In this document: piece by piece, positions 22,948 to 55,576 of the stretch | Numbering within the stretch: position 1 is the first letter of the stretch | Layout: every line of letters begins with the position of its first letter | Source: an uncultured Granulosicoccaceae bacterium | GTDB taxonomy: Bacteria; Pseudomonadota; Gammaproteobacteria; CALCKW01 | Reading direction: 5' to 3' | NCBI GenBank assembly: GCA_937965695.1 | Contig: CALCKW010000059.1 | Span: 351 to 64,350 of the forward strand | DNA length: 64,000 bases | Notes under the pieces: model-generated | What the model saw: only the letters and a program-made list of their open reading frames with translations | Databases searched by the model: none | Told to the model about the DNA's origin: nothing | Made by a program: the position numbers and the translations under genes

Positions 22948-22951
22948 GGGT

Positions 22952-39607: not shown

Positions 39608-39619
39608 GGCTTAGCCCGA

Positions 39620-39648: not shown

Positions 39649-39649
39649 C

Positions 39650-40633
39650 GTGGATAAAACGATGAGCCAATTCCAGAACAGTCAAAGTTGGTACAAGAGA
39701 AATCAGTTGCAGATAGCACCTTGGTTGTTCGTGGCACCAGCTCTATTTTTCTTCAGTATTTACGTCATCATTCCCATCTTTCAATCAATATCTATTTCTT
39801 TTTACGAATGGAATGGGCTCTATAACGCAGCGGGTGAATCCACAGCGAAGTGGGTCGGCTTTGATAACTACGTCAAGCTGATGGATGATGATAATTTTTA
39901 CACCTCTCTGAAAAACAATTTGATCTGGTTGCTGCTGTTTATGGCTGCAGTGCCCATCGGCCTCGCATTGGCGCTGTTTCTCAATCAAACAGTGACCGGT
40001 ATGCGTTTTTACAAGTCAATGTTCTTTTTCCCTTTTGTTATTTCCCAAGTAGTCGTTGGTTTGATATTTGGCTGGTTTTACAACCCTGAATTTGGTGTGG
40101 TCGGCTCCATCTGGAAAGCGTTGTATTGCGAGGAAGTCACCAACATCATGGGTAACCTAACCAGTAAATGCAGTGTTCAACCACCCAATATCCTTGGCGA
40201 TGAAAACTGGGCAACCTATGGCATTATTTTCGCGGGCCTTTGGCCACAAGTTGCCTATTGCATGATCTTATACCTGACAGGACTAAATAACGTGTCGCCG
40301 GATCAAATTGAAGCGGCACGCCTAGACGGCGCACGCGGCTTTAAGATGTTGCGTTACGTGATTCTACCGCAGCTAGCACCAGCTACTTTTCTCGCTGTTG
40401 TAGTGACGGTTATTGGTGCGCTGCGTTCCTTTGACATGATTGCTATCATGACTCGCGGCGGTCCTTATGGTTCCAGTAACGTGCTGGCTTACTATATGTA
40501 TGAAACCGCAATCTCTGAGTACGGAGATCGATACGGTTACGGCTCCGCCATTGCGACCGTACTGTTTTTGATCATGTTGGTATACATCTCTTACTTCTTA
40601 TTTAAGATGTATAGAGACGAGCGAGGTCAATAA
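39650..40633 (+). CDS. Sugar ABC permease (MalF/UgpA-like)
   Basis: It is polytopic with an EAA-loop region (EAARLDGARGFKMLRYVILP). Confidence 0.8.
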   Translation: MDKTMSQFQNSQSWYKRNQLQIAPWLFVAPALFFFSIYVIIPIFQSISISFYEWNGLYNAAGESTAKWVGFDNYVKLMDDDNFYTSLKNNLIWLLLFMAAVPIGLALALFLNQTVTGMRFYKSMFFFPFVISQVVVGLIFGWFYNPEFGVVGSIWKALYCEEVTNIMGNLTSKCSVQPPNILGDENWATYGIIFAGLWPQVAYCMILYLTGLNNVSPDQIEAARLDGARGFKMLRYVILPQLAPATFLAVVVTVIGALRSFDMIAIMTRGGPYGSSNVLAYYMYETAISEYGDRYGYGSAIATVLFLIMLVYISYFLFKMYRDERGQ

Positions 40634-40634
40634 C

Positions 40635-41486
40635 ATGTATCCGAGTCCTATAGAGAAAGCCTCACCGTTCAAGCGAATTGCTTACAAAATGGTGTTGCCG
40701 GTAGCGTTGTTTGTTTGGCTGCTGCCTTTGCTGGCGATTTTCATGACATCGATTCGCCCTGCTGCCGATATCAACACGGGCAATATGTTTGGCTGGCCCA
40801 GCGCATTTAATTTGGTGGAGAACTACACCGCGGTATTTACCGAGTCTCAGGCTGCTAGTTATTTTTGGAATTCAATTAAAGTCACCGTGCCAACAGTTGT
40901 CATGGCGCTGGTGCTTTCTTGTTTGGCAGGCTATGGACTAGCCATTTATCGATTTAAGTTTGCGCTGCCGTTGTTTTTCTTGTTCATCGCAGGCAATTTT
41001 GTCCCTTTTCAAATTCTGATGGTGCCTGTTCGTGATCTATCAGTACGCACTGGTCTCTACGACACAGTTACTGGGCTTGTGCTATTCCATGCGGCATTCC
41101 AGACGGGTTTTTGTACCTTGTTTATGCGAAACTTTATTAGAGGCCTACCGCACGAGCTCATCGAAAGCGCGCGCATAGAGGGTGTAGGGGAGTTACGTAT
41201 TTTTTGGTATGTGGTACTTCCATTAGTACGCCCAGCCATCGCAGCGCTTGCTGTTTTGATCTTTACGTTTATCTGGAATGATTTTTTCTGGGCTACTGTA
41301 TTGACTCAAGGGGAGGCATCTAAACCAATTACTGCGGGTATACGCGCGCTAAACGGACAGTTTGTCTCTCAATGGCACCTTGTGTCGGCAGCATCTCTGA
41401 TGGCGGCATTACCACCTGTTCTTATGTTCTTCGCGATGCAAAAGCACTTTATCGCCGGATTGACACTAGGCGCGACCAAGGGCTGA
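40635..41486 (+). CDS. Sugar ABC permease (MalG/UgpE-like)
   Basis: It is polytopic with an EAA-loop (ESARIEGVGELRIFWYVVLP). Confidence 0.8.
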   Translation: MYPSPIEKASPFKRIAYKMVLPVALFVWLLPLLAIFMTSIRPAADINTGNMFGWPSAFNLVENYTAVFTESQAASYFWNSIKVTVPTVVMALVLSCLAGYGLAIYRFKFALPLFFLFIAGNFVPFQILMVPVRDLSVRTGLYDTVTGLVLFHAAFQTGFCTLFMRNFIRGLPHELIESARIEGVGELRIFWYVVLPLVRPAIAALAVLIFTFIWNDFFWATVLTQGEASKPITAGIRALNGQFVSQWHLVSAASLMAALPPVLMFFAMQKHFIAGLTLGATKG

Positions 41487-41589: not shown

Positions 41590-42729
41590 TTACCTGCCTG
41601 ACGGACTCTCACTCGGTGAAAGTTTTTTACGCTTTCCCAGCTTAAAGCGATCGGCTGTTGCGTATTCGCCTGCGGCGACACCGGCAGCAAAATCGCCAAA
41701 CACTGGGCCATGCTTGAACAGGTGGCCTGAACAACCACCGACCATCAACACCTTGTCGTGGGCAGGATGCCAGTCAACGATAAAATGCGTGTCAGGTGTA
41801 AGGATGATCTGATTGAACTTGCTGTCGACCACGCGCTCTCCCTCAAGACCAGGAAGGCGCTTACGGATGTATTGGCGTGTGCGGTCAATGGTGGAGCGGC
41901 GAATGAGTCGCTCGTCGTTATCTAGGTCAATTTTGTCCGGGATAACGACCGCTGCTTTAACACCGTGACCCTCCACTGAAGGCATACCAAAGCTGCCCTG
42001 ACCGTGGTCAATCCAGCAAGGCATATTGCTGTGGTCGTAACGCTCATTTCCAGCAGGCGTAGCGGTATAGAGTACATTGACACCTACCACCGTACTGATT
42101 GGTTTGATGGTGCGTGGAAACATATCAGCCATCCATGGCCCCGTAGCGATGATAATGCGATCCGCTTGCATGCGCTTGCCATCCAGCAGCGGGTATTCGT
42201 CGGCGTCTGTGCTGACAGCACCACGTTTGACGACACCCCCCAATTTCTGAAACAACTGCACCGCGGAAATAACCGCGCGGTGAGCCATTAGCAAGCCTGC
42301 CTCTGGTTCGTATATACCGTAAGCGATGTCATCGCTCTTGAACTGCGGAAATCTCACCGCCAGTTCACGTTGATCAAAGCGGTGGTGAGGGACACCCAGC
42401 TTGGAGAACGTTTCGCAGGTAGCGTCCTCCCAGTCGCAGTGCCCAGCGGTTGCCAAAATGAGGGCCCCGCATTCGTAGTAAAGGCGCTGTCCTGTTTCCT
42501 CTTGCAATTCAAGCCACTGCAGGCGTGCTTCTCGAGCCCAACGCGTGTAGAACTCGTCGCGGCCGTGAATGGCACGGATGACCCGGTTGTAATCGGTTGA
42601 CGACGCGCGCGGATGGCCTGGCTCCCATTTGTCGATCAACGTAACAGAGTGTCCTCGTCGCTGCAGAGATAGGGCGGTCATGGTGCCTGCGATACCGGCA
42701 CCCACCACAATAATGTCGTTGAAATTCAT
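41590..42729 (-). CDS. FAD-dependent oxidoreductase, DAO family (sarcosine-oxidase-beta / gamma-glutamyl-amine oxidase PuuB / opine-oxidase-like)
   Basis: The start is at MNFNDIIVVGAGIAGTMTALSL, a dinucleotide-binding motif, and the ORF is about 380 aa. It is divergent from the GS-like gene and shares the palindrome-bearing intergenic region. Confidence 0.75.
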   Translation of the reverse strand: MNFNDIIVVGAGIAGTMTALSLQRRGHSVTLIDKWEPGHPRASSTDYNRVIRAIHGRDEFYTRWAREARLQWLELQEETGQRLYYECGALILATAGHCDWEDATCETFSKLGVPHHRFDQRELAVRFPQFKSDDIAYGIYEPEAGLLMAHRAVISAVQLFQKLGGVVKRGAVSTDADEYPLLDGKRMQADRIIIATGPWMADMFPRTIKPISTVVGVNVLYTATPAGNERYDHSNMPCWIDHGQGSFGMPSVEGHGVKAAVVIPDKIDLDNDERLIRRSTIDRTRQYIRKRLPGLEGERVVDSKFNQIILTPDTHFIVDWHPAHDKVLMVGGCSGHLFKHGPVFGDFAAGVAAGEYATADRFKLGKRKKLSPSESPSGR

Positions 42730-42763
42730 TAATGTTCCAAAAAAACGTTGCAATTCGCGTTGA

Positions 42764-42780
42764 TTGAATACAGTATACAA
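42764..42780. promoter_or_regulatory. 17-bp near-palindrome TTGAATAC-A-GTATACAA, a candidate GntR-type operator in the divergent promoter region of the DAO gene and the BMC operon
   Basis: I read this directly from the sequence. A nearly identical element, cTGTATAC-A-GTATACAA, lies at 55538..55554. Confidence 0.45.
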
Positions 42781-42853
42781 AAACGCGAAAATGAGCAAGA
42801 TAAAGCATCGGATAGATGTATAGTAACGGTAAATCAACTCGGAGAGGTCGCAT

Positions 42854-44149
42854 ATGAATCAGCTGGATCCCACACTGCCTGAGGGTATTCACACTGTCGC
42901 CATGGGCATTGGAGACGCCAACGGCATCATGCGTGGCAAACGGATTCCCGCCAGTCATTGGAAATCGATCTGTGACGGGGGATGCACTATGTCACTCGCG
43001 ACCTTCGCTATTGATATGACGTGTGATGTTTGGGACACGCCCTATGTCAATTTCGACAACGGTTATCCGGATATGCATATTTTTCCGATCTCTCAGCCCA
43101 AAGAATGCCCGTGGGAGCCAGGGGTGGCCGTGTGTATGGCACAGGCCGTTGGCACAGACCATAAACCTGTGCCAATAGATCCTCGAAATGCGCTTGTTCG
43201 ACAGGTAGAGCGCGCACGAGAGATGGGTTTTGAAGTGAGTGTGGGGACAGAGCTGGAGTTTTATTTGCTTGACCCAGAAACTAAGATGCCTAAAGACGCA
43301 GGCATTGGTGTCTACAGCTTGGTGCGGGCTGCTGAGCTTGAACATGTGCTCGGGCCGATTCGCAATGGCTTGGTCGAAGTGGGTATTCCTATAGAACAAT
43401 CCAATCCCGAGTATGCCGCTGGTCAGGTGGAAGTGAATATTCGCTTTGACGAGGCACTGTTAGCCGCCGATCGTGTCGTGATGTTTCGCAATCTGGTGAA
43501 AGAACTTTCAATGCATCACGGCTACTTGGCAACGTTCATGTCCAAGCCCTTTTTGGAAGAGTCGGGTAGTGGCTTTCACACCCATTACTCGCTGTGGCGA
43601 GACGGTAAAAATCAGTTCAGTGATGATGGCAAGTTTAACCAACTCGGTCGTCATTTTGTGGCGGGCTTGCAAAAAAGAATGGCGGAGATGGCGCTTGCTT
43701 CAGCGTCTAACCCCAATGCCTATCGCCGACGTCAGCCATATACTTTTTGCCCGACCAATACCAGTTGGGGCCCCGACAATCGCACGGTGGGTTTGCGCGT
43801 GATCGAAGGCTCTGAAAGTGCTGCTCGTATCGAAAAACGTGATGGATCTGCAGATTGCAATCCTTATTACTTGCTCGCTTGCGAGTTGGCGGCGGGCCTG
43901 GATGGTATCGAGGCTGGCGAGGAGCCGTCTGAAATGACCACGGGCAATGCCTATGAATCCGAGACTGAAGGTCTTATCCCCGCTGACATGGCCACTGCAA
44001 TAGCCTTGGCGAAAGAGTCAACGTTTATGCGTGACGTTATGGGTGAAAGCGGGCTTCAGATCATGATTCAACAAGCAGAGCGAGAACTCGAATTCATCGC
44101 GACACCAATATCACCGGTAGAGATTGAGCGCTACCTTGGAAACTTTTAA
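42854..44149 (+). CDS. Glutamine-synthetase-family ligase (gamma-glutamyl-amine synthetase; GmaS/PuuA/IpuC-like)
   Basis: The ORF is 431 aa with a GS catalytic-domain pattern (…EVNIRFDEAL…GSGFHTHYSLW…NPYY…). Its stop overlaps the start of the BMC vertex gene (TAATG). Confidence 0.75.
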   Translation: MNQLDPTLPEGIHTVAMGIGDANGIMRGKRIPASHWKSICDGGCTMSLATFAIDMTCDVWDTPYVNFDNGYPDMHIFPISQPKECPWEPGVAVCMAQAVGTDHKPVPIDPRNALVRQVERAREMGFEVSVGTELEFYLLDPETKMPKDAGIGVYSLVRAAELEHVLGPIRNGLVEVGIPIEQSNPEYAAGQVEVNIRFDEALLAADRVVMFRNLVKELSMHHGYLATFMSKPFLEESGSGFHTHYSLWRDGKNQFSDDGKFNQLGRHFVAGLQKRMAEMALASASNPNAYRRRQPYTFCPTNTSWGPDNRTVGLRVIEGSESAARIEKRDGSADCNPYYLLACELAAGLDGIEAGEEPSEMTTGNAYESETEGLIPADMATAIALAKESTFMRDVMGESGLQIMIQQAERELEFIATPISPVEIERYLGNF

Positions 44150-44442
44150 TGCGCTTGGCTAATGTCACAGGCACTGTCACAGCGACAGTCAAATCTCAGT
44201 CGCTAACTGGGTTGAAGTTTTTGCTGGTGGACTATACAGACGCCGGCGGCAAAGTTATCGATGCGGCACGTGTTGTTGCGGACGATGTTGGTGCCGGCGT
44301 AGGTGACCAAGTCATTGTCAGCGAAGGATCAGCCGCACGATTACCCAATGGCATGGCAGGCTTAGCGGTGGACGCGACGGTTTTGGCCATTGTGGACGAG
44401 GTTAAAACAAAGGCAAGAAGGGCGGCAGCCAAGTCCGGCTGA
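44149..44442 (+). CDS. Bacterial microcompartment vertex protein (BMC-P; EutN/CcmL/PduN family)
   Basis: The sequence MRLANVTGTVTATVKSQSLTGLKFLLVDY…VGAGVGDQVIVSEGSAARL… has the typical EutN/CcmL pattern. The ORF is 97 aa. Confidence 0.85.
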   Translation: MRLANVTGTVTATVKSQSLTGLKFLLVDYTDAGGKVIDAARVVADDVGAGVGDQVIVSEGSAARLPNGMAGLAVDATVLAIVDEVKTKARRAAAKSG

Positions 44443-44557
44443 GATCCTATTAAATCTAGAACAGCTAAAAGGGCATAAGGCTCTTTTTACGAGCAGATTG
44501 GTTTTTACTTAAAGATCAATTGGTGCTTTTGAATATCACTTATAAAGGAAAAAAGTC

Positions 44558-44866
44558 ATGGCGACAAAACAAGCACCCGGGCAGTCAGCACTGGGCATGA
44601 TCGAGACACGGGGTTTGGTAGCAGCGGTTGAAGCGGCCGACGCAATGGTAAAAGCAGCTAACGTCACTATCGTAGGGCAAACCAAGGCTGGTGGTGGACT
44701 GATCACAATCCTAATCCGCGGCGAAGTCGGTGCTGTTAAAGCTGCAGCTGATGCTGGTGCCAATGCTGCAAATAAAGTGGGTGATGTTGTGGCCGTCCAC
44801 GTCATTCCGCGACCACACGATGAAGTCGAAGGAATTTTGAGCGCACTCGGCGGTGGCGGCGAGTAG
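44558..44866 (+). CDS. Bacterial microcompartment hexamer shell protein (BMC-H; PduA/EutM/CcmK family)
   Basis: The canonical Pfam00936 pattern is present: [58 protein letters not shown]…VHVIPRPH. The ORF is 102 aa. Confidence 0.9.
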
Positions 44867-45035
44867 TGCTCTGACAACGCGGCAAATTAGGATGCAGCGT
44901 GCCGTCGTATTTTTAGATATTCGAGCTAGTTATGAATCGCATTTTATTGACAATCATAGGTAATGCTAAGCGGGTGTCCTTTAGGAACGCTTTTGCTTCA
45001 TTTGTGCCGCGCTTTCAGAGCACGGAGGCTAACTG

Positions 45036-46244
45036 ATGAGCGACGTGGACTTCGAGCGCTTCACCCAGTCTCTGGGTGTTCAAACGTCAGGAGCAAGCGC
45101 TGCTACTTCGGCGAAACGTTTTGAGCGCGCATGCGTATTGGGTGGAGACAGCGATGCCTGGTTGTTGGCGGCAATTTGTGTGGCCAATGACACTCCGGTG
45201 AAATTGTTTTCTGCCTACGCTGCTGAGCTTGACCCACTGCGCTCAGCCGGTGGTGTGACACTGCGAGGCGCTGGACCCATAGGAACTGTCGCACTAGATC
45301 AAAGTAAGTCTGCAAGCATTGAGACAACCACGGTGCTTGATTCAGCTGTCAATGACAGCGATATCATCTTTTTAACTGGGCCAGTGCACAAACTGCGCAC
45401 CTGGGCGATGGTGTTGGCAGGTCATCTGCGTGATGGTCAGGTCGTTGTCGTTTTGAATGCTCGTACATTTGGCGCTTTAGAGACTCGAAGTTTGTTGAGG
45501 CTAGGTGGTAGTACGGCAGATTGCACTATCGTCGAGTTGCAAGGTGCACCTTGGTGGTTAGCTGCTTCAGGCACCCAACTGCAACTTTCAAAACGGACGG
45601 CCCCATTGGCGGCCACGCTTCCAGCTCGGCGCGAGCATGTGCTTCAGGGTTTGCAGGCTTTGATTGGTAAAATACAACCATGTACCTCAACACTCTACAG
45701 CAGTTTTGGAGATTGCAGTGGTGTTGTGGAATTACCTGCATTGGTGCTAGGCGGTCCGTTCAATCCCAACGGGGGACCAGCTGTTCCGGATGGTGCAAAC
45801 GCACTGCCTGTACATCAGAATTTTCATAACCTATTTGGTGAAAGCCATCGGCTTGTAGCCTCGCAATTGCTCGACGAACGTCGTTTGGTGGCCTCCAAGT
45901 TTGGTGTGCGAGATCTACCAAATCTTGAGTTGGCATTGAGCGACTATGCAGGCGGGGTTGAAGCAGATGATTCACGCGCAATTCCCAACTTGCAGCAAAG
46001 CAGAGAGATGCTCCGCTGTGCAGTAATTGCGTCGCTATTGCCATTGCAAAGTGCTGCGCAGTTGGCGGGTGTTGCAGTTCCTGTAACGCAGGCGATGACG
46101 ACACTGGGTAGCAGTTTGCTCGACGCTGATTTAACGGCGGCTGGACGATGGCTCGAAAGTTTGGGTGTGGCCAGTACGAGTTTCGATGATTGCAAGCGAT
46201 CTTTAGCTGAACTAATAGACGGAGAATCTAGCGGTGGACGCTGA
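45036..46244 (+). CDS. Opine-dehydrogenase-like (octopine/nopaline DH family) protein with N-terminal amphipathic-helix-plus-linker extension
   Basis: It is collinear with Arthrobacter-type opine dehydrogenase. The matching pairs are DSDIIFLTGPVHKLRTWAMVLAGHLRDGQVVVVLNARTFGALETRSLL versus DADVILIVVPAIHHASIAANIASYISEGQLIILNPGATGGALEFRKIL, and LLDERRLVASKFGV versus VDAERIAIAKAFDL. The GxGxxG motif is replaced by GGDSDAW. The first ~30 aa (VDFERFTQSL plus a GASAATSA linker) are extra. This assignment is by recalled homology and is not searched. Confidence 0.5.
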   Translation: MSDVDFERFTQSLGVQTSGASAATSAKRFERACVLGGDSDAWLLAAICVANDTPVKLFSAYAAELDPLRSAGGVTLRGAGPIGTVALDQSKSASIETTTVLDSAVNDSDIIFLTGPVHKLRTWAMVLAGHLRDGQVVVVLNARTFGALETRSLLRLGGSTADCTIVELQGAPWWLAASGTQLQLSKRTAPLAATLPARREHVLQGLQALIGKIQPCTSTLYSSFGDCSGVVELPALVLGGPFNPNGGPAVPDGANALPVHQNFHNLFGESHRLVASQLLDERRLVASKFGVRDLPNLELALSDYAGGVEADDSRAIPNLQQSREMLRCAVIASLLPLQSAAQLAGVAVPVTQAMTTLGSSLLDADLTAAGRWLESLGVASTSFDDCKRSLAELIDGESSGGR

Positions 46245-47613
46245 TTTAAGATCAATACAAGCAGCACGTGAGGCGGCCGATAAGGCTTTCACCGCATGGC
46301 AGACTTTTAAAAACACGGACCCAGCACAGATTGATGAAATAGTGCAGGCGATGGCGCGTGCCATTGAGCCTGAGGCCCTACGCTTGGCTGAGCTAGCGGT
46401 CGAAGAAACGGGTTACGGGAATGTGCCGGATAAACGCATAAAAAATCTGTTTAATTCTCTTTCAGTGGCTGAATGGCTGCGCGACATTAAGACGCTGGGC
46501 TTGTTGTGGCAGGATGAGCGAACCAAAATTGCCGCAATCGGTGAACCGATGGGTTTGGTGGCAGCGTTGATCCCGGTGACAAATCCCACATCGACCATTA
46601 TTTATAAGGTTTTGTCGGCTGTTAAGGCTGGCAACGCTATTGTTTGCGCGCCGCATCCACGTGGGGTCAAAAGCGGTGTTGCAACCGTAGAAATCATGGC
46701 GCGTGTTGCCGAGCAAATGGGTGCGCCTAAGGGACTCATTCAGTGTTTGGATCAAGTGACAAACCAAGGCACTGCTGAACTCATGAAACATCGACGTACG
46801 TCGGTGGTTATGGCTACCGGTGGACCGGCCATGGTGCAGGCCGCTTATTCATCTGGTAAGCCAACTCTGGCTGTTGGAGCAGGTAATGTGCCTTGTTATG
46901 TCCATGCCTCAAAAAAATCGGAACTAGCCGAGGTCGCTGAACAAATATTGACCTCTAAGAGCTTTGACTACGGCACCGCTTGTGTCTCGGAGCAGGCGAT
47001 TGTTGTCGATCGTGAAATTGCCGGGCAGTTGCGGCATGAGATGCGTATGCGTGGTGGTTATTTTTGCACCGCTTCCGAAGCTGAGCGTTTGGCAAAAGTG
47101 ATCTTTACGCCAAATAACAGCATGAACCCAAACAATGTAGGTCAATCACCTGAGAGTTTGGCTTCGCAGGCGGATATCCAAATTCCACCCAATTGCCGCG
47201 CTCTTATTGCCGATCAAAGTGAAATAGGCTGGCATGCTCCCTTGTCCGCAGAGAAATTAAACCCGGTGTTGGCTTGGTACGAAAGCAAAGACAGCGACGA
47301 GGGCATCGACATCTCTGAGCGGATCGCTAAGTTTGGCGGTTGGGGCCACAGTGCGGTGGTGCATTCAAATGATCCCGGCATTGTGAGTCAGTACAGCCGC
47401 CTGCCCGTTGGGCGTGTGCTGGCCAACACACCCGGTATTTTGGGTGGTATGGGATTCTCGACGGATCTAGAACCGAGTTTCATGCTGGGAACAGGCACCT
47501 CTTCTGGCTCCATTGTTTCTGACAATGTGACAGCCTTGCATTTGATTAATATAAAACGTGTCGCTTGGCAAAATAGGCCATGGCGAGACATCTATGATAT
47601 CTACGGAGAATAA
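46234..47613 (+). CDS. CoA-acylating aldehyde dehydrogenase (EutE/PduP-type metabolosome signature enzyme)
   Basis: The ORF is 459 aa in the ALDH superfamily. It has the BMC-AldDH-style N-terminal region (…FKNTDPAQIDEIVQAMARAIE…) and a catalytic Cys context (GTACVSEQ). It overlaps the upstream gene by 11 nt and sits between shell genes. Confidence 0.75.
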   Translation: MDADLRSIQAAREAADKAFTAWQTFKNTDPAQIDEIVQAMARAIEPEALRLAELAVEETGYGNVPDKRIKNLFNSLSVAEWLRDIKTLGLLWQDERTKIAAIGEPMGLVAALIPVTNPTSTIIYKVLSAVKAGNAIVCAPHPRGVKSGVATVEIMARVAEQMGAPKGLIQCLDQVTNQGTAELMKHRRTSVVMATGGPAMVQAAYSSGKPTLAVGAGNVPCYVHASKKSELAEVAEQILTSKSFDYGTACVSEQAIVVDREIAGQLRHEMRMRGGYFCTASEAERLAKVIFTPNNSMNPNNVGQSPESLASQADIQIPPNCRALIADQSEIGWHAPLSAEKLNPVLAWYESKDSDEGIDISERIAKFGGWGHSAVVHSNDPGIVSQYSRLPVGRVLANTPGILGGMGFSTDLEPSFMLGTGTSSGSIVSDNVTALHLINIKRVAWQNRPWRDIYDIYGE

Positions 47614-47615
47614 GC

Positions 47616-48242
47616 GTGGCGAGTAAAATTACTATACGAGCGTTGATGCAGATCGACCGCTTGCAGCCAAAATTTGCTGCCTACAACGGTGCAACGGTAC
47701 AAGGTTCTGTGCCGCTCGCGGGCGATACCGTGCTTATTGGTGAGTTTGCACCTGGGAATGGGGTGTTTACCTTAATTGATAAGGCGCTGAAAGCGAGCGC
47801 TGTTGAGGCTACTTCGCAGTTGGTCGAGCGCGAGTTTGGTTTTTTTATTCTTCGTTCTACGTCTAACGCGGAAGTGAGTGCGGCGAGAGATGCCATTCTC
47901 TCGGAGTTAGGCGCAAGCATGGAATCGCGTATCAAGCCTCAGCTTGAGTCTACTCAAATCATAACCTCCGTTGAGCCCTATCAAGCCCAATTGATTAATA
48001 AGTGGCGTAAAGGCGCATTGCTGGTTCCTGGCCAGACACTGGGTATTGTTGAGTGCTCGCCAGCGGCTTATATCTCTGTTGCGGCCAACGAAGCTGAAAA
48101 GGCAGCTCACATAGATATTGTAGAAGTGAGGGCGGTAGGACGTTTTGGTCGTTTGTTTATTTCTGGTGGTGAAGACGATGTGAAGACCGCCATCGCAGCC
48201 GCGAGCAAAGCCATTGAAGCAATGGATGGGCAGTCGGCCTAA
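47616..48242 (+). CDS. Tandem-BMC-domain shell protein (BMC-T, PduT-like)
   Basis: The ORF is 208 aa. The second half (TLGIVECSPAAYISVAANEAEKAAHIDIVEVRAVGRFGRLFISGGEDDVKTAIAAASKAIE) is a clear BMC domain. The first half is a more divergent BMC-like domain. Confidence 0.6.
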   Translation: MASKITIRALMQIDRLQPKFAAYNGATVQGSVPLAGDTVLIGEFAPGNGVFTLIDKALKASAVEATSQLVEREFGFFILRSTSNAEVSAARDAILSELGASMESRIKPQLESTQIITSVEPYQAQLINKWRKGALLVPGQTLGIVECSPAAYISVAANEAEKAAHIDIVEVRAVGRFGRLFISGGEDDVKTAIAAASKAIEAMDGQSA

Positions 48243-49423
48243 TGGCGGATTTGGTCAGCGATGCGGATGTCATTGCCGCTCATCGTCGAGGGCGGATGGT
48301 GATAGAAATCGTACCGGGAACGATTGTTACACAGCAAGCTCGTGATACTGCAGCGCGGCTGGGCGTCTCGCTACACGAGGGTTTGCTGGAGCGTCCTCAA
48401 GCGCCTCGCACTGATGGCAATGTGAGTTTGAGGCGTAACTTATGGCGTCGTAACCCTGGCTGGATTTCACCGCTAAATAAACCGACACCACGTGCACGCC
48501 GTATAAAAAAGTTAGCACTGATAGGTGCTGGCGGGGTAGGTGCCAATATTGCGCATTTGGTGTGCAATGCTCACTCAGCTGATCTAGTGTGCTTAATAGA
48601 TGTGGTGCCGGGCTTGGCAGAATCTGTCGCTTTGGACCTTGAGCATGCCACCGGTGTCAATCGATCTGCAACACGCGTCAGTGGTGGAGAATCGCTGCAA
48701 GCGGTTGCGGGTGCTGAAGTGGTTGTTGTTACAGCAGGGCGACCGCGTACACCGGGTATGGGTCGCAGTGATCTGCTGGATATTAACCGACGTGTTATCC
48801 GAACGGCAGCTCAGGCGATCAGTGAGCATGCACCAGAGGCGATTGTTATTGTTGTCACCAATCCCCTCGACGAGATGACCGTTGAAATGCTTCGCGCAAC
48901 AGGATTTCCGAGACAGCGAGTGCTTGGCATGGCCGGCACACTTGACAGCAGCCGGTTCCGCCGTGCACTAGCAAAAGAAGCGGGTGTTGCGGTGGCTGAT
49001 GTAGAAGCCATAACACTCGGCAGCCATGGCGATGAAATGACGCCAATCACTTCTCGCGCCCGTATTCGCGGTCGTACGTTAGAGACTGTGTTGTCGCAAG
49101 AGCAAATAGACGCCTGCGCAAAAGATGCCGTCACCGGTGGAGGGCAGGTAGTAGCACTGCGCAAGACGGGTTCAGCGACTGTTGCGCCTGCACACTCAAC
49201 CGTAGAACTCATTGACCACATCCGAGGTGCACTGAATGGCGCTGTGCCAGTCTCGGTAATGCTAGAAGGCGAATACGGAATAACTGGCGTAGTTCTAGGG
49301 GTCCCTTGCTTGATTGGTGCTAGCGGTGTGTTGGAGGTAGAAGAGCTGGCCTTAAATGAATCTGAAAGTCAGATGCTTCACGCGGCGGCGCAAGCGATTA
49401 CAGAGCGATTGAACGATGCCTGA
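48242..49423 (+). CDS. Lactate/malate dehydrogenase-family NAD-dependent 2-hydroxyacid dehydrogenase with ~90-aa N-terminal extension
   Basis: The LDH/MDH core begins at about aa 95: LALIGAGGVGANIAHL, VVVTAGRPRTPGMGRSDLL and GSHGDEMTPI (catalytic His). The preceding 90 aa (MADLVSDADVIAAHRRGRMVIEIVPGTIVTQQARDTAARLGVSL…) are not part of the LDH fold. The start overlaps the BMC-T stop (TAATG). Confidence 0.75.
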   Translation: MADLVSDADVIAAHRRGRMVIEIVPGTIVTQQARDTAARLGVSLHEGLLERPQAPRTDGNVSLRRNLWRRNPGWISPLNKPTPRARRIKKLALIGAGGVGANIAHLVCNAHSADLVCLIDVVPGLAESVALDLEHATGVNRSATRVSGGESLQAVAGAEVVVVTAGRPRTPGMGRSDLLDINRRVIRTAAQAISEHAPEAIVIVVTNPLDEMTVEMLRATGFPRQRVLGMAGTLDSSRFRRALAKEAGVAVADVEAITLGSHGDEMTPITSRARIRGRTLETVLSQEQIDACAKDAVTGGGQVVALRKTGSATVAPAHSTVELIDHIRGALNGAVPVSVMLEGEYGITGVVLGVPCLIGASGVLEVEELALNESESQMLHAAAQAITERLNDA

Positions 49424-49832
49424 TCCTGTTTTGTTGAAAGCGGCAGGCGGTGGTCGATTTGAAAAAATTGGCGCCTACGCGCGAGCGCGTCGCGTGGGCC
49501 CTTTTGTGTATGTGGCAGGCACGACTGCGATAGCGTCAAACGGGCTACTGCACGCACCCGGTGACACTTACGCACAAACGCTTTTTATCTTTGAACGCAT
49601 AGAGCAAGCATTGGCCGATGTACAAGCTGAGATGCGACATGTGGTCCGCACCCGAGCATTTTTTAGCGAAATCGCCAACGGTGGCGATTTCGTTCGTGCG
49701 CATGGTGAGGTTTTTACGGGTATCGAACCCGTCACCAGTGGCGTCGCCGCTGGATTGACAACCCCGGGCATGATGATTGAAATCGAAGTGGATGCTTTAG
49801 TCCACGACACCCAAGGAAATATACAGTGGTGA
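49416..49832 (+). CDS. RidA/YjgF/TdcF-family reactive enamine/imine deaminase
   Basis: The ORF is 138 aa with a RidA family pattern (…FVYVAGTTA… …TRAFFSEI… …GIEPVTSGV… …IEIEVDALV). It overlaps both neighbours. Confidence 0.75.
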   Translation: MPDPVLLKAAGGGRFEKIGAYARARRVGPFVYVAGTTAIASNGLLHAPGDTYAQTLFIFERIEQALADVQAEMRHVVRTRAFFSEIANGGDFVRAHGEVFTGIEPVTSGVAAGLTTPGMMIEIEVDALVHDTQGNIQW

Positions 49833-51706
49833 GCGGCGTTCATAACACCCCATCTGGCGGATGGGCCTCATGGTTCGATCTGCGCAGCCGCGAGTCCCTG
49901 TTGTCTGCGTTTCTACTTTTTGCGATCGTGTGTGTTTTGCTGGCGGCAGCCGCCTACTTTGAACTCGCTAGTCCTCGCTTACTCAAGATTGGCTGCGTCA
50001 ACTTAATCGCTGCATTAGCGCTGGGTCTTTTCAGCGGTTCAACGGGTGTTCTATCTCTCGGACATGTCGCGTTTTTTGGTATTGGCGCCTACGTTAGCGC
50101 GTGGTTCACTTTAATTCCCGCAATCAAAGGCATGCTCTTGCCTGACATGCCAGTTTTTATTCAGCAATCGCAGTGGAGTCTCTGGTTCGCCGTTATTCCA
50201 GCCATCATCGCTGGTCTATTGGCCGGTGTTTTGACTGGTTTCGTGATGCGGCGCTTGCGTGATACTTCCGCCGTTATCGCGAGTTTTGGTTTTTTAGTCA
50301 TTTTTTACCTTTTGTTTATAGGGTTGAAAATTTTTACGAATGGAAAACAATCCCTTTATGCCTTACCCATCGACCAATTGAGTTGGCCGTTAACCATGAC
50401 AGCGATCGCAACGGCTCTGCTTGTCACATTTGCCATACGCGCCAGTGCATTGGGAAGGGCGGCGGAGTCCTTGCGAGATAATGAAGCAGCTGCTCGTTCT
50501 GTTGGCGTAGACGCTGACCGTACCTTCTTTTGGGTGTGGGTCGCCAGTGCTGCACTGATGGCTATGGCTGGCGCCTTGTTTGCGCACTCCATTGGCATCG
50601 CGTCTCCTAGCAGTTTCTATTTAGATAAAACATTCGCTCTTATTGTGATGATAATCGTTGGGGGTTATCGGTCATTGACGGGTTGCGCTCTGGGTGCGGT
50701 GTTAATAACAATCGTTGAAGAATTACTAAAGCACGCAGAAGAATCTTTGGGTGCCCTTGCAGGCCAACAAGTACTGGGCGGTCTTATTGAAATGCCCCGT
50801 GTTTTTGGCCTAACGGCCTTGTGCTTCTCAGCGATTATTTTGTTGGTGTTGTATTTACGCCCAGAGGGCGTGATTGGCTATCGCGAATTGGCGCAAGCAG
50901 GTCTTATAAGACGACTGTTTGGGCGATGGCTCGAACCTGCCAGCAAGGGTGAAGAACAAGTCATCTACTCTGTGCCCAAGGAGTCGGAACTGTCCGCGCA
51001 GTCTTTGGGTAAAAATTATGGCTATTTTAGCGCCATGAGTGACGTGAGCTTTGAAGTAGGACCAGGGGAAATTGTTGGACTGATCGGGCCTAATGGTGCA
51101 GGTAAGAGCACCTTTATCAATGTAATGACCGGGAACCTTTTTGCGAGCTCTGGCGCTATTTTCCTAAACGGAGAAAATGCGACTCAGTGGAGTGCGCATG
51201 ACTTGGCGCGTCGTGGCATGGGCCGTACTTTTCAAAATATTCGGTTATTTGCCTCGCTTAGCACGTTGGACAATGTGCTGACGTCTGTCAACGTTGCCTC
51301 TCCCAAACTATCTCGTGTTGATGCTGAAGTGCTGGCGATGAATTGGCTACGCGAGCTTAATCTAGATCAGCACGCCCTGGAAGCAGGAGGCTCACTAGCC
51401 TATGGCGATCAGAGACGATTAGAAATAGCCCGTGCTTTGGCTTTGGAACCGCATTTCTTGCTGTTAGACGAACCCGCAGCGGGCATGAACGATTCCGAGA
51501 CCCATCAGTTGCAGCAATTGCTTAAAGATATCGTTCAGCGAATAGGTTGCGGTGTCATTTTGATCGAGCACGATATGCCAATGGTCATGGCGCTCTGCGA
51601 CCGACTGGTTGTGCTCAATAAGGGAGAGCAAATTGCCTCTGGCCCAGTGGCCGATGTGCGTAAAGATCCACAAGTTATAGAGGCTTACATCGGGGAATCA
51701 CCTTAA
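49826..51706 (+). CDS. Fused HAAT-family ABC transporter: LivM-like permease domain + LivG-like ATPase domain in one polypeptide
   Basis: The N-terminal ~370 aa are polytopic. The C-terminal ~250 aa carry Walker A ([10 protein letters not shown]), the signature (YGDQRRLEIARALA) and Walker B (LLLDEPAAGM). A GTG start overlaps the RidA stop. Confidence 0.75.
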   Translation: MVSGVHNTPSGGWASWFDLRSRESLLSAFLLFAIVCVLLAAAAYFELASPRLLKIGCVNLIAALALGLFSGSTGVLSLGHVAFFGIGAYVSAWFTLIPAIKGMLLPDMPVFIQQSQWSLWFAVIPAIIAGLLAGVLTGFVMRRLRDTSAVIASFGFLVIFYLLFIGLKIFTNGKQSLYALPIDQLSWPLTMTAIATALLVTFAIRASALGRAAESLRDNEAAARSVGVDADRTFFWVWVASAALMAMAGALFAHSIGIASPSSFYLDKTFALIVMIIVGGYRSLTGCALGAVLITIVEELLKHAEESLGALAGQQVLGGLIEMPRVFGLTALCFSAIILLVLYLRPEGVIGYRELAQAGLIRRLFGRWLEPASKGEEQVIYSVPKESELSAQSLGKNYGYFSAMSDVSFEVGPGEIVGLIGPNGAGKSTFINVMTGNLFASSGAIFLNGENATQWSAHDLARRGMGRTFQNIRLFASLSTLDNVLTSVNVASPKLSRVDAEVLAMNWLRELNLDQHALEAGGSLAYGDQRRLEIARALALEPHFLLLDEPAAGMNDSETHQLQQLLKDIVQRIGCGVILIEHDMPMVMALCDRLVVLNKGEQIASGPVADVRKDPQVIEAYIGESP

Positions 51707-51807
51707 CAGTGGGTTTCTCGTGTTCGGGTAATCTTTTAAATTATTCGAACTAAGTTAGAGCGTTACTTTTTTGCAGTTAATGTAATAAACACCTCGAAGC
51801 AACAGGA

Positions 51808-52989
51808 GTGAGAACGATGATCAAAAACCTACTAGCAGCAGCCGTGGTCGCCAGTGTTGGCATGACCACAGCACACGCAGATGGTCACGCAAAAGATTTC
51901 GTGATTGGCGCTGTCAACGCAAAAACAGGCTTCATGGCCGCATATGACGCACCTTTTATGCAGGGCGTGCAGATGTATATGGACGGTGCCAATGCTGATG
52001 GCGGCTTTATGGGTAAATACCCCATCAAGTTGATCGAACGCGATGATGGCTCAGACGTGCAAAAGTCTACGGTATCTACAGCCGAGTTGCTGCAGTCCGA
52101 AGAGCTGAATCTATTCATTACCTCTGCACTGGCTCCGTATGCCATTTCCGCAGGCAGCCAGGCATTGGCCAAAGACTTGTTAACTGTCCACACCATTGCA
52201 TCACAGCCCACGATTCCGGCGCGTTTGGGTGAAGGCAGTTACTTGGTCATGATGTCCGATGCCCATATGGGCGGTGTTTATGCCAAGTACGCTACTGACA
52301 CGCTCGAGGCTAAAACTGCTTATATCGTGACGAGTGACTTTGACCCCTACACTGAGTTTCTCCCATTGTATTTTAAAGAGAAATTTGAAGCAGCTGGCGG
52401 TAAAGTCATCGGTCAATCTGACTTTGCCTACGATCAGCAAGAGTTCTCATCAGTCGTCTCTGCGATCAAAGCGCTACCCGAACAACCCGATGTCATTATG
52501 GGAATGCCGTTCGATAACGATTTCCCTATCTTTATTAACCAGCTTCGTGCTGCTGGGGTGAAGTCGGTCTACCTGGGTCCAGACACCCTCGATTTGCCTT
52601 CTGTTAAAGGGTTAGGTGATGTCGTTGAAGGGGTGCATTACGTGACCATGGCTGCTCCTTCTAGCAGCGAGGCCGCGGGTGACTTTGTCAAGGCATATGG
52701 CGAGCGGTATGGCAGCGAAGACAGTGCGTATCCAGCGATGGTGGGTTATTCGTTCATGCGTATGGTTGAAGCGGCAGTCAATGCGGCGGGTGGCACGGAT
52801 GCAGCGGCAGTTCGTGCAGCATTTGCTCAGCTAGAAAATGTCGAAACTGAAATTGGTTCCGTCACTTTTAAAGGCTTTGGTGCGTTACCTAATCTTCCGG
52901 TGCATGTGATGCGCATAGAAGGCGGTAAAGGTGTTCATGTCGAGTCTATTTTGTTAGAGGCAGACGAAATACCAACACCACGTTCTTGA
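51808..52989 (+). CDS. HAAT-family periplasmic substrate-binding protein (LivK/UrtA/FmdD-like)
   Basis: A signal peptide (MIKNLLAAAVVASVGMTTAHA) and a PBP1 HAAT-type profile are present. The ORF is about 390 aa. Confidence 0.7.
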   Translation: MRTMIKNLLAAAVVASVGMTTAHADGHAKDFVIGAVNAKTGFMAAYDAPFMQGVQMYMDGANADGGFMGKYPIKLIERDDGSDVQKSTVSTAELLQSEELNLFITSALAPYAISAGSQALAKDLLTVHTIASQPTIPARLGEGSYLVMMSDAHMGGVYAKYATDTLEAKTAYIVTSDFDPYTEFLPLYFKEKFEAAGGKVIGQSDFAYDQQEFSSVVSAIKALPEQPDVIMGMPFDNDFPIFINQLRAAGVKSVYLGPDTLDLPSVKGLGDVVEGVHYVTMAAPSSSEAAGDFVKAYGERYGSEDSAYPAMVGYSFMRMVEAAVNAAGGTDAAAVRAAFAQLENVETEIGSVTFKGFGALPNLPVHVMRIEGGKGVHVESILLEADEIPTPRS

Positions 52990-53078
52990 GGGCGTGATTA
53001 GCGATGGTGTCGGGAATAGGGCCTGGCACCATTGGCTATCCATGCAAGCATGTTTGATAAATTGACAGAGCTTCGATT

Positions 53079-53795
53079 GTGAAAAAAGCAGTGTTAGAGG
53101 TCGAAAATCTGGTTGTTCAATACGGCCAAATTTCTGCGGTGCAAGGGGTCAACCTAACCGTCAATGAAAATGAGTTGGTCACCGTTATCGGGGCTAATGG
53201 TGCCGGGAAGACTTCTACTTTAAATGCCATGATGGGGTTAGTTCCTGCGGCTAGCGGAGAAATTCGCTACAAGGGTGAATCCCTTTTGCACATGCCGGTT
53301 GAAAAGCGCCCAAGTATGGGTATTGCATTTTCACCTGAGGGACGAAGAGTCTTTGGGCCTTTGTCTGTGCGCGACAATTTGCGGGTCGGTGGGAATAGCC
53401 TGCCGGCCTCTCAGGTTGACGGTCGCATTGACGAAATGGTTGAGCGATTTCCTATTTTGGGAGAGCGCCTACAGCAAGCAGCGGGGACGCTTTCTGGTGG
53501 AGAACAGCAGATGTTAGCCATTGCGCGTGCGCTGATGATTTCCCCCGATTTTTTAATTCTCGATGAACCCTCGTTGGGGTTGGCTCCTATTGTCGTCGCA
53601 CAAGTGTTTGAGTTGATCGCTGAGCTTCATGCGGAAGGTGTGGCAATACTATTGGTTGAACAAAACGTTAGAAAAAGCTTGGCTATTGCTGATCGAGCTT
53701 ACGTTATGGAACTGGGACGCTTTGTGCGTGAAGGTGCAGCCGATGAATTGGCTGCAGACCCATCCATAGAAAATAGCTATCTCGGCGCGGCTTAA
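53079..53795 (+). CDS. HAAT-family ABC ATPase (LivF-like)
   Basis: Walker A (GANGAGKTST), the LSGGEQQMLAIARAL signature and Walker B (LILDEPSLGL) are present. A GTG start is likely. Confidence 0.8.
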   Translation: MKKAVLEVENLVVQYGQISAVQGVNLTVNENELVTVIGANGAGKTSTLNAMMGLVPAASGEIRYKGESLLHMPVEKRPSMGIAFSPEGRRVFGPLSVRDNLRVGGNSLPASQVDGRIDEMVERFPILGERLQQAAGTLSGGEQQMLAIARALMISPDFLILDEPSLGLAPIVVAQVFELIAELHAEGVAILLVEQNVRKSLAIADRAYVMELGRFVREGAADELAADPSIENSYLGAA

Positions 53796-53833
53796 AGGCC
53801 GCCTGAATAATTTAGGTTTCTTGGGAGATAGAC

Positions 53834-54721
53834 TTGGACCTCTTTTTACAATTTCTAGTCTCAGTGCTGAGTCTTGGCGGCGTGTATGCGCTACTAGCTT
53901 TGGGGCTGTCTACCGTTTTTGGATTGTTGGGATTTCTCAACTTTGCACACGGTGATCTGATGACAATCTGTGGCTATGGCTTGTACTTTATGCTGGCTGC
54001 GGGATTTGGTTTTGTTCCTGCGGCTACGCTCGCTCTCGCGCTGGCTGCATTGGCAGCAGTTTTAATGGAGCGCTTGGCATTTCGACCGTTGCGTGGTCGC
54101 AACCCGATGACGCTGCTTATTACTTCTTTTGCCCTGTCGTTGGCCTTACATGTTAGCTTTCAGATTTTTATAAGCCCAAAACCTAAGCCCATTCCCGTAC
54201 CAGAGTTTTTGTCAGGTTATTTTACTATTGGTGAAATTTTTATAAGCCGCGCGCAAGTAATCGCTATTGTCGTCTCTGTGTTGTCATTAGTGCTGCTTAA
54301 TCTTTTCGTCAATCGCACGCGCCTCGGCGTAGCACTGCGTGCCGCTGCGGCAGATTTTGATGTAGCGAGAGCTTTTGGCGTAAAGGCTAATCAAGTTATT
54401 GCAATCGCTTTCGCGTTGAGTGGCTTGCTCGCGGGATTGGCAGCATTGGTGTGGATATCACAGCGAGGTGCAGTGTTTCCCACCATGGGATTGACCCCAA
54501 TGGTGAAGGCGCTGATAGCCGTCATTATCGGAGGGCTGTCGAATCCGCGCGGCGCGCTCTTGGGTGGTTTTATGTTGGGCTTATTGGAAGCGGGCTTTCT
54601 ATTTACTCTTCCAGATAGCCTTGTGTTGTACCGGGACGCCTTGGTGTTGCTGGTGTTGATTCTGTTTTTGATGTTTAGGCCTAACGGATTGATTGCGACC
54701 AATCCAGAGCCGATGCGGTAG
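53834..54721 (+). CDS. HAAT-family ABC permease (LivH-like)
   Basis: It is a polytopic protein of 295 aa. Confidence 0.75.
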   Translation: MDLFLQFLVSVLSLGGVYALLALGLSTVFGLLGFLNFAHGDLMTICGYGLYFMLAAGFGFVPAATLALALAALAAVLMERLAFRPLRGRNPMTLLITSFALSLALHVSFQIFISPKPKPIPVPEFLSGYFTIGEIFISRAQVIAIVVSVLSLVLLNLFVNRTRLGVALRAAAADFDVARAFGVKANQVIAIAFALSGLLAGLAALVWISQRGAVFPTMGLTPMVKALIAVIIGGLSNPRGALLGGFMLGLLEAGFLFTLPDSLVLYRDALVLLVLILFLMFRPNGLIATNPEPMR

Positions 54722-54743
54722 AGCGATATATCTCAAAGGCAAT

Positions 54744-55554: not shown

Positions 55555-55576
55555 CGTACATTATGAGGGGAATAAC

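Follow-up and report, generated by a model that had tools for sequence, protein, structure and literature searches.

A MIC2-type metabolosome locus in an uncultured Granulosicoccaceae bacterium, its linked MgsABC-like trio and a possible alkylamine substrate

To which type does a bacterial microcompartment (BMC) locus found in an uncultured Granulosicoccaceae bacterium belong, and on what substrate might its enzymes act? The locus lies within 64,000 nucleotides of contig CALCKW010000059.1 (NCBI GenBank assembly GCA_937965695.1, positions 351 to 64,350), the whole stretch that was analysed and that is called the window here. An original prediction had outlined a metabolosome operon at 42854–51706 and held that its cargo matches no described BMC type. 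The extent is real, but the functional unit is larger (~41590–58625, ~17 kb) and adds a flavoenzyme resembling monomeric sarcosine oxidase (MSOX), the rest of a four-gene HAAT importer, a GntR/FCD regulator and a trio of genes with the architecture of MgsABC. The claim of an undescribed cargo set did not hold, since the same gene set is MIC2 in Supplementary Data 2 of the BMC catalogue (Sutter et al., 2021, Nat Commun 12:3809, PMC8217296). The locus is almost certainly a MIC2-type metabolosome. The type is already catalogued; what is new is the enlarged regulon, the trio reminiscent of the N-methylglutamate (NMG) pathway, the operator shared by both transcription units and the evidence from individual residues. 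The shell and enzyme genes are the following.

41590–42729, minus strand: FAD oxidoreductase of the monomeric sarcosine oxidase/N-methyl-Trp oxidase family, 379 aa (Pfam DAO 153 bits, NF008425 186 bits), called DAO below.
42854–44149, plus strand: ligase of the glutamine synthetase (GS) family, predicted γ-glutamyl-amine ligase (Gln-synt_C 282 bits; under the cut-offs of GS-III/GmaS, GlnA and PuuA; 30% identical to canonical GmaS).
44149–44442, plus strand: BMC-P vertex protein (PF03319, EutN_CcmL, 82 bits), whose start overlaps the GS stop in TAATG.
44558–44866, plus strand: BMC-H hexamer protein (PF00936 96 bits; EutM and CsoS1 models ~110 bits; PRPH motif in the translation).
45036–46244, plus strand: oxidoreductase with an opine dehydrogenase (opine-DH) fold, 402 aa, the MIC2 signature "6PGDH-like" protein (family profile and AlphaFold2 fold).
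46234–47613, plus strand: CoA-acylating aldehyde dehydrogenase (AldDH) of the EutE/PduP/AdhE-N type (TIGR02518 492 bits, AdhE N-domain 459 bits, both under the equivalog cut-offs).
47616–48242, plus strand: tandem-domain BMC-T of the CcmP/CsoS1D (double-stacking) type (NF053796 204 bits).
48242–49423, plus strand: enzyme of the lactate/malate dehydrogenase (LDH/MDH) family, malate-dehydrogenase type (Ldh_1_N and Ldh_1_C; NF004863 317 bits, above the cut-off of 283).
49416–49832, plus strand: Rid (YjgF/YER057c/UK114) family protein (PF01042 67 bits; TIGR00004 39 bits against a cut-off of 106).

All of the open reading frames (ORFs) of the original prediction are present and intact where it placed them, and the profile searches it proposed, run with Pfam and NCBIfam, bore out every domain call except that of the 402-aa protein, which taken alone has no match in either collection. 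The translational coupling it described can be read as TAATG at the GS/BMC-P and BMC-T/MDH junctions, and with the ORF starts used here the overlaps are 11 nt (opine-DH-fold/AldDH), 8 nt (MDH/Rid) and 7 nt (Rid/ABC gene). Genes for a BMC-H (PF00936) and a BMC-P (PF03319) thus stand within one locus, and the gene for the CoA-acylating AldDH sits among the shell genes, as in a metabolosome. Orthologues of the BMC-T carry precomputed PF27545 and PF00936 matches, and of the window ORFs that were scanned (150 aa or longer), none other encodes a shell-family protein. Long antisense ORFs lie opposite BMC-H, GS and AldDH (e.g. 113 aa, 44536–44877, minus strand, opposite BMC-H); these mirror the sense frames, are rich in Ala, Pro and Ser, and are not credible genes.

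The name MIC2 stands for "metabolosome with incomplete core 2", and the type comprises 22 loci from Acidithiobacillia, Alpha- and Gammaproteobacteria and two Actinobacteria, with the function listed as unknown (PMC8217296). Its content is given as an AldDh without encapsulation peptide (EP), a pfam02866 LDH/MDH with an N-terminal extension of ~70 aa, a protein of the 6PGDH-like superfamily with a short helical N-terminal EP, and a pfam00120 GS (PMC8217296). All four enzymes are in the window, and so are the two extensions: 88 aa precede Ldh_1_N in the MDH-type enzyme, and a helix (residues 3–14) followed by a linker opens the 6PGDH-like protein. There is likewise agreement in the hosts (Proteobacteria) and in the minimal shell of one H, one P and one Tdp, with no difference at the type level. 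In the shell-protein trees of the catalogue, two BMC-Ps are labelled MIC2, namely Rhodobacter lobularis AIOL_004305 (81 aa) and AB833_29385 (PMC8217296). The first matches the 81-aa BMC-P of a syntenic locus from the same organism (L002), and the R. lobularis/Ca. R. oscarellae locus (L002/L034) is fully syntenic with the window at locus-wide identities of 45–86%. The second stands two locus tags from AB833_29375, a homologue of the opine-DH-like protein in a Bugula symbiont (P0044).

An uncatalogued type could be suspected from the main text of the catalogue, which never names a GS, an opine DH, an MDH or RidA and leaves MIC2 to a supplementary PDF. However, the supplementary description lists exactly this enzyme and shell set, and the MIC2-labelled BMC-Ps come from the same organisms as the syntenic or homologous loci found here. 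Because the description and the labelled BMC-Ps both match the locus, the claim of an uncatalogued type is wrong, and a new type is hardly credible. The original prediction had made its novelty depend on the gene set not being a named type with a known substrate; half of this applies, as MIC2 has a name and the catalogue gives no substrate.

How widely is this arrangement shared? Relatives were sought with the 402-aa protein, taking one genome per species; it has relatives in 158 species genomes, for which 80 loci were fetched (L004–L083). Counts out of 83 below refer to these and to three loci fetched earlier, and many of the misses lie at contig ends. All 80 fetched loci belong to marine Alpha- or Gammaproteobacteria, among which are Hoeflea, Nitratireductor, Paracoccaceae, Granulosicoccaceae and Arenicellales, and some of these bacteria live with sponges, corals, bryozoans or kelp. 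Gene-neighbourhood conservation, a check suggested with the original prediction, was borne out, in that every opened context, L004–L083 included, has the same order: DAO (divergent), GS-like ligase, BMC-P, BMC-H, 402-aa protein, AldDH, BMC-T, LDH/MDH, Rid and a HAAT ABC transporter. Proteins matching those of the window are found for BMC-H in 81/83 loci, for the GS-like ligase and AldDH in 78/83 each, for BMC-T and the MDH-like enzyme in 75/83 each, and for DAO and Rid in 74/83 each. The core proteins are ~70–85% identical to those of the closest loci (Hoeflea, Nitratireductor), compared with only 45–50% for the 402-aa protein. The latter, with its numerous homologues at ~45–50% identity, is both the most specific marker of the locus and its fastest-evolving component (median pairwise identity 57.5%), and the window copy diverges somewhat further still (46% against that median). 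The MSOX-like DAO, the Rid protein, the HAAT transporter, the GntR regulator and the MgsABC-like trio are conserved here but do not appear in the published description of MIC2.

The genes and sites that extend the unit beyond the importer, and link its two ends, are these.

54744–55409, minus strand: GntR/FCD regulator, divergent from the trio (FCD and GntR domains).
55578–56521, plus strand: class-II (Ntn) glutamine-amidotransferase-like subunit, MgsA-like (GATase_6, GATase_7; starts MCGIAG, with Cys1 intact; 32% identical to a canonical MgsA).
56518–57210, plus strand: GXGXG-domain subunit, MgsB/GlxC-like (PF01493; 35% identical to canonical MgsB).
57195–58625, plus strand: FMN-binding subunit with a glutamate-synthase domain, MgsC-like (PF01645 329 bits).
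42768–42780, no strand assigned: operator-like site ATACAGTATACAA in the divergent promoter region of DAO and GS (42730–42853).
55535–55554, no strand assigned: operator-like palindromes ATACTGTATACAG / ATACAGTATACAA upstream of the trio, the second 13-mer at 55542.

A split of GltB over three genes is the architecture of the N-methylglutamate synthase MgsABC. The MgsA-like gene, called as 314 aa in one of the related loci (L001), is present in 39/83 loci, the GntR/FCD regulator accompanies the trio in 40/83, and the trio lies no more than 10 kb away in at least 31 of 49 full-length loci. It takes one of two places, upstream of DAO in most Alphaproteobacteria or downstream of the transporter in Arenicellales and in the window. 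The association also holds in the reverse direction. For five MgsC-like homologues of 85–87% identity, the gene adjoins MIC2 in three cases and lies ~6.5 kb from it in a fourth, and the genome of the fifth carries MIC2 1.4 Mb away. The MIC2-linked MgsC-like proteins have an acidic N-terminal extension of ~35 aa (MADDL..YEYPFE.PSEE..F.DGAIEGRPAGVPSSYD.GGS; 57195–57300) that canonical MgsC is without, and the MgsB-like protein ends in an invariant AWLMI. In the one genome with an unlinked module of regulator, trio and class-I amidotransferase (L088/L089, a Paracoccaceae metagenome-assembled genome), folD (6455–7357) stands directly upstream of the regulator, the only C1-type gene near any MIC2-type trio.

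The two transcription units also share a sequence. The 13-mer ATACAGTATACAA occurs exactly twice in the window, and all matches with up to two mismatches fall within the same two regions. Across loci, the GTATAC core reaches 6.2/kb in the DAO–GS intergenic region (56/71 loci, ~34-fold enriched) and 8.3/kb in the regulator–trio intergenic region (24/29 loci, ~45-fold enriched), against a background of 0.18/kb, and the palindrome consensus ATACTGTATACAGAAT is common to the BMC promoter region and the trio. The shared ATACTGTATACAGAAT operator suggests one regulon, whose regulator is presumably the GntR/FCD protein, and the BMC operon and the trio are apparently co-regulated. In the proposed scheme, the regulator would control both units by binding this palindrome. 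An Rfam scan of the locus found no riboswitch or other RNA element, and a scan for promoter and terminator consensus sequences gave no excess over chance.

What reaction might open the pathway? The original prediction proposed an amine BMC that begins with γ-glutamylation, and the GS-like ligase bears on this directly. Its scores do not place it in a named family: it reaches 213 bits on the GmaS equivalog TIGR03105, whose cut-off is 470, and 184 bits on the PuuA model, and in comparisons with the PDB it is no nearer to GmaS (123–128 bits) than to ordinary GSs. The residues are more telling. They were numbered on E. coli GlnA (469 aa), with canonical GmaS co-aligned. The catalytic residues E129, E131, E212, E220, H269, H271, R321, R339, R344, E357 and R359 are kept, while the ammonium site is changed at four positions (D50 to S, S53 to T, Y179 to V and E327 to F). 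These positions read S, T/L, V and F in 25/25 MIC2 sequences, and canonical GmaS is altered at the same four (A, A, C, W). As the ligands of metal, ATP and glutamate are kept and the ammonium site is lost, the alignment favours a ligase for organic amines over a glutamine synthetase. The proposed opening by γ-glutamylation is therefore strengthened by the loss of the ammonium site as in GmaS and by the linked MgsABC-like trio; the roles that the prediction gave to RidA and to the opine-DH-like protein are weakened, as detailed below. The trio and the ligase were also considered as a plain pair of GS and glutamate synthase (GS/GOGAT), which was rejected on account of the lost ammonium site.

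A ligase of this kind next to such a trio recalls the NMG pathway (PMC6237917), whose canonical cluster has the layout mgsABC-gmaS-mgdABCD-folD-purU plus a regulator. In three canonical clusters that were fetched, MgsABC adjoins glnT/gmaS, and two of the three also have mgd (sarcosine-oxidase-like), folD and purU. The MIC2-linked proteins stand apart from them. MgsC-like proteins are 84–94% identical among themselves and 53–57% identical to canonical MgsC, whereas canonical MgsCs from different classes (Alphaproteobacteria and Acidithiobacillia) share 69–70%. The corresponding values are 26–32% against 45% for MgsA, and 28–32% against 39–40% for GmaS. On these identities, the MIC2-linked ligase and trio form a separate clade that is paralogous to the methylamine enzymes. 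MgdABCD and PurU are found in 0/89 MIC2-related loci and not in the window, and FolD in one species only. The canonical methylamine pathway was accordingly rejected as the primary reading, on the separation of the clades and the lack of Mgd, FolD and PurU. A match on a megaplasmid of A. caldus, from a class known to host MIC2, was likewise set aside, being a canonical NMG cluster and not MIC2.

Methylamine could still be the substrate if formaldehyde were sequestered in the BMC and oxidised via formyl-CoA. JGI labels several close MgsC-like homologues as subunit C of methylamine-glutamate N-methyltransferase, MSOX-family enzymes free formaldehyde from N-methyl amino acids, and FolD adjoins the trio in the one species mentioned. 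Against this route stand the ligase and trio, which form a clade apart from the canonical methylamine enzymes, and the near absence of the C1 genes just described. The AldDH, moreover, gets its highest scores from acylating models of the acetaldehyde type, and in the catalogue tree the RMM1 enzyme is its nearest characterised relative. Methylamine as substrate is very unlikely. A substrate larger than methylamine is suggested because an AldDH and a shell replace MgdABCD, FolD and PurU, because the ligase and trio form their own clade, and because the AldDH is of the acetaldehyde type.

Which enzyme could then release an aldehyde? The first candidate is the 402-aa protein. A profile of its family matches CENDH (1bg6) with E=1e-23 over nearly the full length, and its AlphaFold2 model (pLDDT 91) finds 1bg6 with Foldseek at E=2e-23 and a TM-score of 0.83, the other top folds being octopine DH and metallophore opine dehydrogenases. 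The description "opine-DH-like" is hence correct at the fold level, and the protein has the Rossmann domain and 6PGDH-like C-domain of that fold. The family keeps a GxGxxA motif and many invariant arginines; besides the change at codon 38 taken up below, the window copy has 5 further changes at 99 strongly conserved positions. The N-terminus forms an amphipathic helix (residues 3–14), in which F6 and F9 are invariant, and continues into a disordered linker; this would correspond to the classical layout of an encapsulation peptide. At the C-terminus, Arg is found in 50/76 sequences and G-x-R in 37/76.

The fold invites the reading that an imported marine-invertebrate opine is catabolised, with the GS-like ligase and the trio as a dedicated GS/GOGAT pair. 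Such a reading would suit an amino-acid-type HAAT importer, a trio that is a split GltB, and hosts of which several live with sponges, corals, bryozoans or kelp. It is opposed by the ligase, whose ammonium site is lost in all 25 sequences, and by the lack of a GltD-like small subunit. The canonical opine-DH reaction is itself weakened, since an invariant Glu stands in the place of the catalytic His. Furthermore, opine cleavage gives a 2-oxo acid and no aldehyde, which would leave the AldDH and the shell unexplained. Opine catabolism is therefore a quite improbable function.

The second candidate is the MSOX-like DAO. The original prediction had assigned the family correctly, but the true start is the ATG at 42729 (379 aa) and not an over-extended TTG. 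The best PDB match is MSOX 1zov (114 bits), and the equivalents of R49, R52, K265 and K348 are kept. C315 is replaced by N, from which no covalent FAD is expected. R52 and K348 are α-carboxylate-binding residues typical of N-alkyl-amino-acid oxidases, and the residues of DAO fit an oxidase of N-substituted α-amino acids. The protein ends in a conserved tail of ~25 aa, ...KLSPSESPSGR (41590–41665, minus strand), which MSOX is without; PSGR is found in 60/60 orthologues and SPSGR in 59/60. This C-terminal tail could be a non-classical docking or encapsulation signal.

A GS-like ligase, a DAO oxidase and an aldehyde dehydrogenase together recall the logic of PuuABCD, and a pathway like Puu, Pau or Ipu could dispense with N-alkylglutamate altogether. 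In this alternative, a monoamine, diamine or amino alcohol would be γ-glutamylated, DAO (in the role of PuuB) or the opine-DH-fold protein would oxidise the product, γ-glutamyl-aldehyde would be the substrate of the BMC, a class-I glutamine amidotransferase (GATase; in the role of PuuD) would remove the glutamyl group, and the trio would only regenerate glutamate. In about 19 loci a gene for a class-I GATase/Peptidase_C26 does separate the trio from DAO, and the ligase scores on the PuuA model as given above. The locus in the window, however, has no class-I GATase; DAO belongs to the MSOX/MTOX family and retains R52 and K348; the trio forms its own conserved clade and has an operator in common with the BMC promoter; and the AldDH is acylating, unlike PuuC. 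This alternative is considered unlikely.

The AldDH itself was correctly called acylating, with 492 and 459 bits on acetaldehyde-type acylating models as against 54 or less on models of non-acylating ALDHs, and with the catalytic Cys in the context TACVSEQ. It has no N-terminal extension; its short acidic-aromatic tail, RPWRDIY(E/D)EYGE (47575–47610), is conserved, despite the catalogue listing no EP on the MIC2 AldDh.

For the "LDH/MDH-like" enzyme, the family assignment stands, and the subtype is malate dehydrogenase rather than LDH by NF004863 and the active-site residues. The true MDHs 4plh and 4ros match at 241 bits, the equivalents of R102, R109, R171 and H195 are present, and the motifs TAGRPRTPGMGRSDL, DSSRFR and GSHGD align to both structures. 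Its N-terminal extension of 88 aa (48242–48505) is conserved over its whole length, has no Pfam match even at E<=10 and gave nothing in a word-indexed protein search. An exhaustive phmmer search of 1.84 billion representatives found the extension in only 32, always N-terminal, and Ldh_1_N follows it directly in 9 of 10 scanned matches; by this measure the extension is private to this MDH family. The opine-DH-fold and MDH-type proteins are named as candidates for the lumen, an assignment that is doubtful.

Membership of the next protein in the Rid family is confirmed by PF01042; the name RidA is not, given a TIGR00004 score below the cut-off and the lack of the RidA arginine. Its best PDB match is Rv2704 (3i7t). 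At the place of the arginine shared by 2csl, RutC and YabJ (Arg105 in Salmonella RidA), the window protein has Thr, and 0/50 Rid orthologues have Arg. The idea that a RidA quenches imines is weakened by this absence.

Downstream of the Rid gene lies the transporter, with the following parts.

49826–54721, plus strand: HAAT-family ABC importer of four genes (Pfam and NCBIfam).
49826–51706, plus strand: fused LivM-like permease and LivG-like ATPase of this importer.
51808–52989, plus strand: HAAT substrate-binding protein (SBP) (Pfam/NCBIfam).
53079–53795, plus strand: LivF-like ATPase (Pfam/NCBIfam).
53834–54721, plus strand: LivH-like permease (Pfam/NCBIfam).

A dedicated HAAT importer had been foreseen, and 49826–51706 is indeed its fused permease and ATPase; the locus does not end there, since the importer runs to 54721 and the unit to 58625. 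A HAAT transporter follows Rid in most related loci, usually with a different SBP (439 aa, unfused genes, 55 loci), and the set seen in the window (fused permease-ATPase, 393-aa SBP) occurs in only 4 loci, including L035 and L076. The transporter module seems exchangeable among MIC2 loci. Searches of the PDB with either SBP type yielded nothing nearer than distant Liv-like matches and gave no clue to the ligand. A second complete HAAT transporter in the window, UrtABCDE-like (20238–25437, minus strand; 451-aa SBP, two permeases, two ATPases), has a permease that clusters with the permease accompanying MIC2 in other genomes, and a gene for an M20 peptidase lies at 18991–20169.

How could these parts work together? 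Gene content, MIC2 orthology, linkage, operator motif and residue features were observed directly; from them we infer the reactions, the substrate and the luminal proteins proposed here. Import by the HAAT system would bring in a small primary amine, R-CH2-NH2, in which R has one or more carbons. The GS-like ligase, using ATP, would convert it to a γ-glutamyl-alkylamide, and the trio would turn this into N-alkyl-L-glutamate, as MgsABC does for methylamine. Oxidation of the N-alkylglutamate to glutamate and R-CHO could be carried out by the EP-tagged opine-DH-fold protein in the shell or by the MSOX-like flavoenzyme. The acylating AldDH would then trap the aldehyde as acyl-CoA within the shell, and the MDH-type enzyme would regenerate NAD+ by converting oxaloacetate to malate, a plausible form of the NADH recycling in the original prediction. 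For a γ-glutamyl/N-alkylglutamate front end acting on a primary amine of two or more carbons, the chances are judged to be even. Somewhat more tentative is the full proposal that MIC2 is an alkylamine-utilisation microcompartment, the first BMC with such a front end (a paralogue of the methylamine NMG pathway adapted to amines with two or more carbons), in which the opine-DH-fold protein is a new aldehyde-releasing signature enzyme and recycling of NAD+ through malate and oxaloacetate replaces alcohol dehydrogenase. If MIC2 does use alkylamines, the 88-aa extension of the MDH-type enzyme and the ...SPSGR C-terminus of the MSOX-like enzyme may be new targeting signals.

Several observations weigh against the alkylamine proposal. 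There are two candidate oxidisers of N-alkylglutamate in one locus. The opine-DH-fold candidate has the EP-like helix and a gene coupled to that of AldDH, but a non-canonical catalytic residue: in a sequence alignment only, His202 of CENDH (His212 of OcDH) falls on the invariant Glu232. Its window copy, moreover, has Asp at codon 38 (45147–45149), where 23/24 relatives have the second Gly of GxGxxA (G38D). The other candidate, DAO, has no recognisable EP and only the invariant C-terminal tail. The AldDH is without EP as well, and no phosphotransacylase is present, which leaves the recycling of CoA unexplained, while the Arg-less Rid protein has no part in the proposed route. The trio is not found within 10 kb in about one third of the full-length loci and is 1.4 Mb off in one genome. 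With regard to import, the SBPs are not orthologous across loci, and among the ligands of HAAT binding proteins, amino acids, urea and amides are better established than alkylamines. Finally, a search of the literature found no later functional study of MIC2 and no experimental data for any MIC2 locus; nor did it turn up any work connecting BMCs with gmaS, NMG, opine DH or alkylamines.

MIC2 is among the "functionally cryptic" metabolosomes that the catalogue leaves open (PMC8217296), and the linkage of the trio, the shared operator and the lost ammonium site yield a short list of testable reactions and inducers for it. If the alkylamine proposal is true, amine scavenging via N-alkylglutamate would join the biochemistry of BMCs, the NMG pathway would extend past C1 compounds, and engineering would gain a minimal shell of three proteins together with candidates for new targeting signals.

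The window holds other genes as well. Immediately upstream of the MIC2 locus is a galactoside utilisation cluster (32002–41486, plus strand) with a GH36 α-galactosidase, galactokinase, GalT, a GH42 β-galactosidase and a sugar ABC SBP with two permeases, which appears unrelated to it. An IclR regulator and a MalK-like ATPase are encoded at 29918–31861 (minus strand), and two adjoining paralogous YHYH-domain proteins at 5416–6447 and 6847–7884 (minus strand).

Among known systems, the closest types in the catalogue are MIC1 and then RMM1 (PMC8217296). MIC1 of Actinobacteria (Axen 2014; Sutter 2021) resembles MIC2 in having the closest AldDh, without EP, an LDH/MDH with a similar N-terminal domain and a BMC-Tdp; unlike MIC2, it is described without a GS-like ligase and without an opine-DH-fold protein. 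RMM1, which acts on aminopropanol/aminoacetone, has an incomplete core, a GntR regulator and the AldDh that is the next closest characterised relative, and it is a BMC for an amine-derived aldehyde, as is proposed for MIC2. However, RMM1 makes its aldehyde with a kinase and a class-III aminotransferase/phospholyase, and uses no γ-glutamylation, trio or opine-DH-fold protein. The Puu, Pau and Ipu pathways (for polyamines, monoamines and isopropylamine) share with MIC2 an ATP-dependent γ-glutamylation by a GS-like enzyme followed, as would be the case in MIC2, by oxidation, and their class-I GATase-type hydrolase is found in many MIC2 loci too. In contrast to MIC2, they are not compartmentalised, employ non-acylating ALDHs and have no split-GltS trio. 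The NMG pathway and MIC2 have in common a ligase with a replaced ammonium site, the architecture of a glutamate synthase split over three genes, a flavoenzyme related to sarcosine oxidase and a regulator of the GntR/FCD type. The ligase and trio proteins of the NMG pathway are paralogous and not orthologous to those of MIC2, at 30%, 30%, 35% and 55% identity. Where the NMG pathway uses the heterotetrameric MgdABCD, MIC2 has the monomeric MSOX-like enzyme, and where the former handles C1 units with FolD and PurU, MIC2 has an acylating AldDH and a BMC shell.

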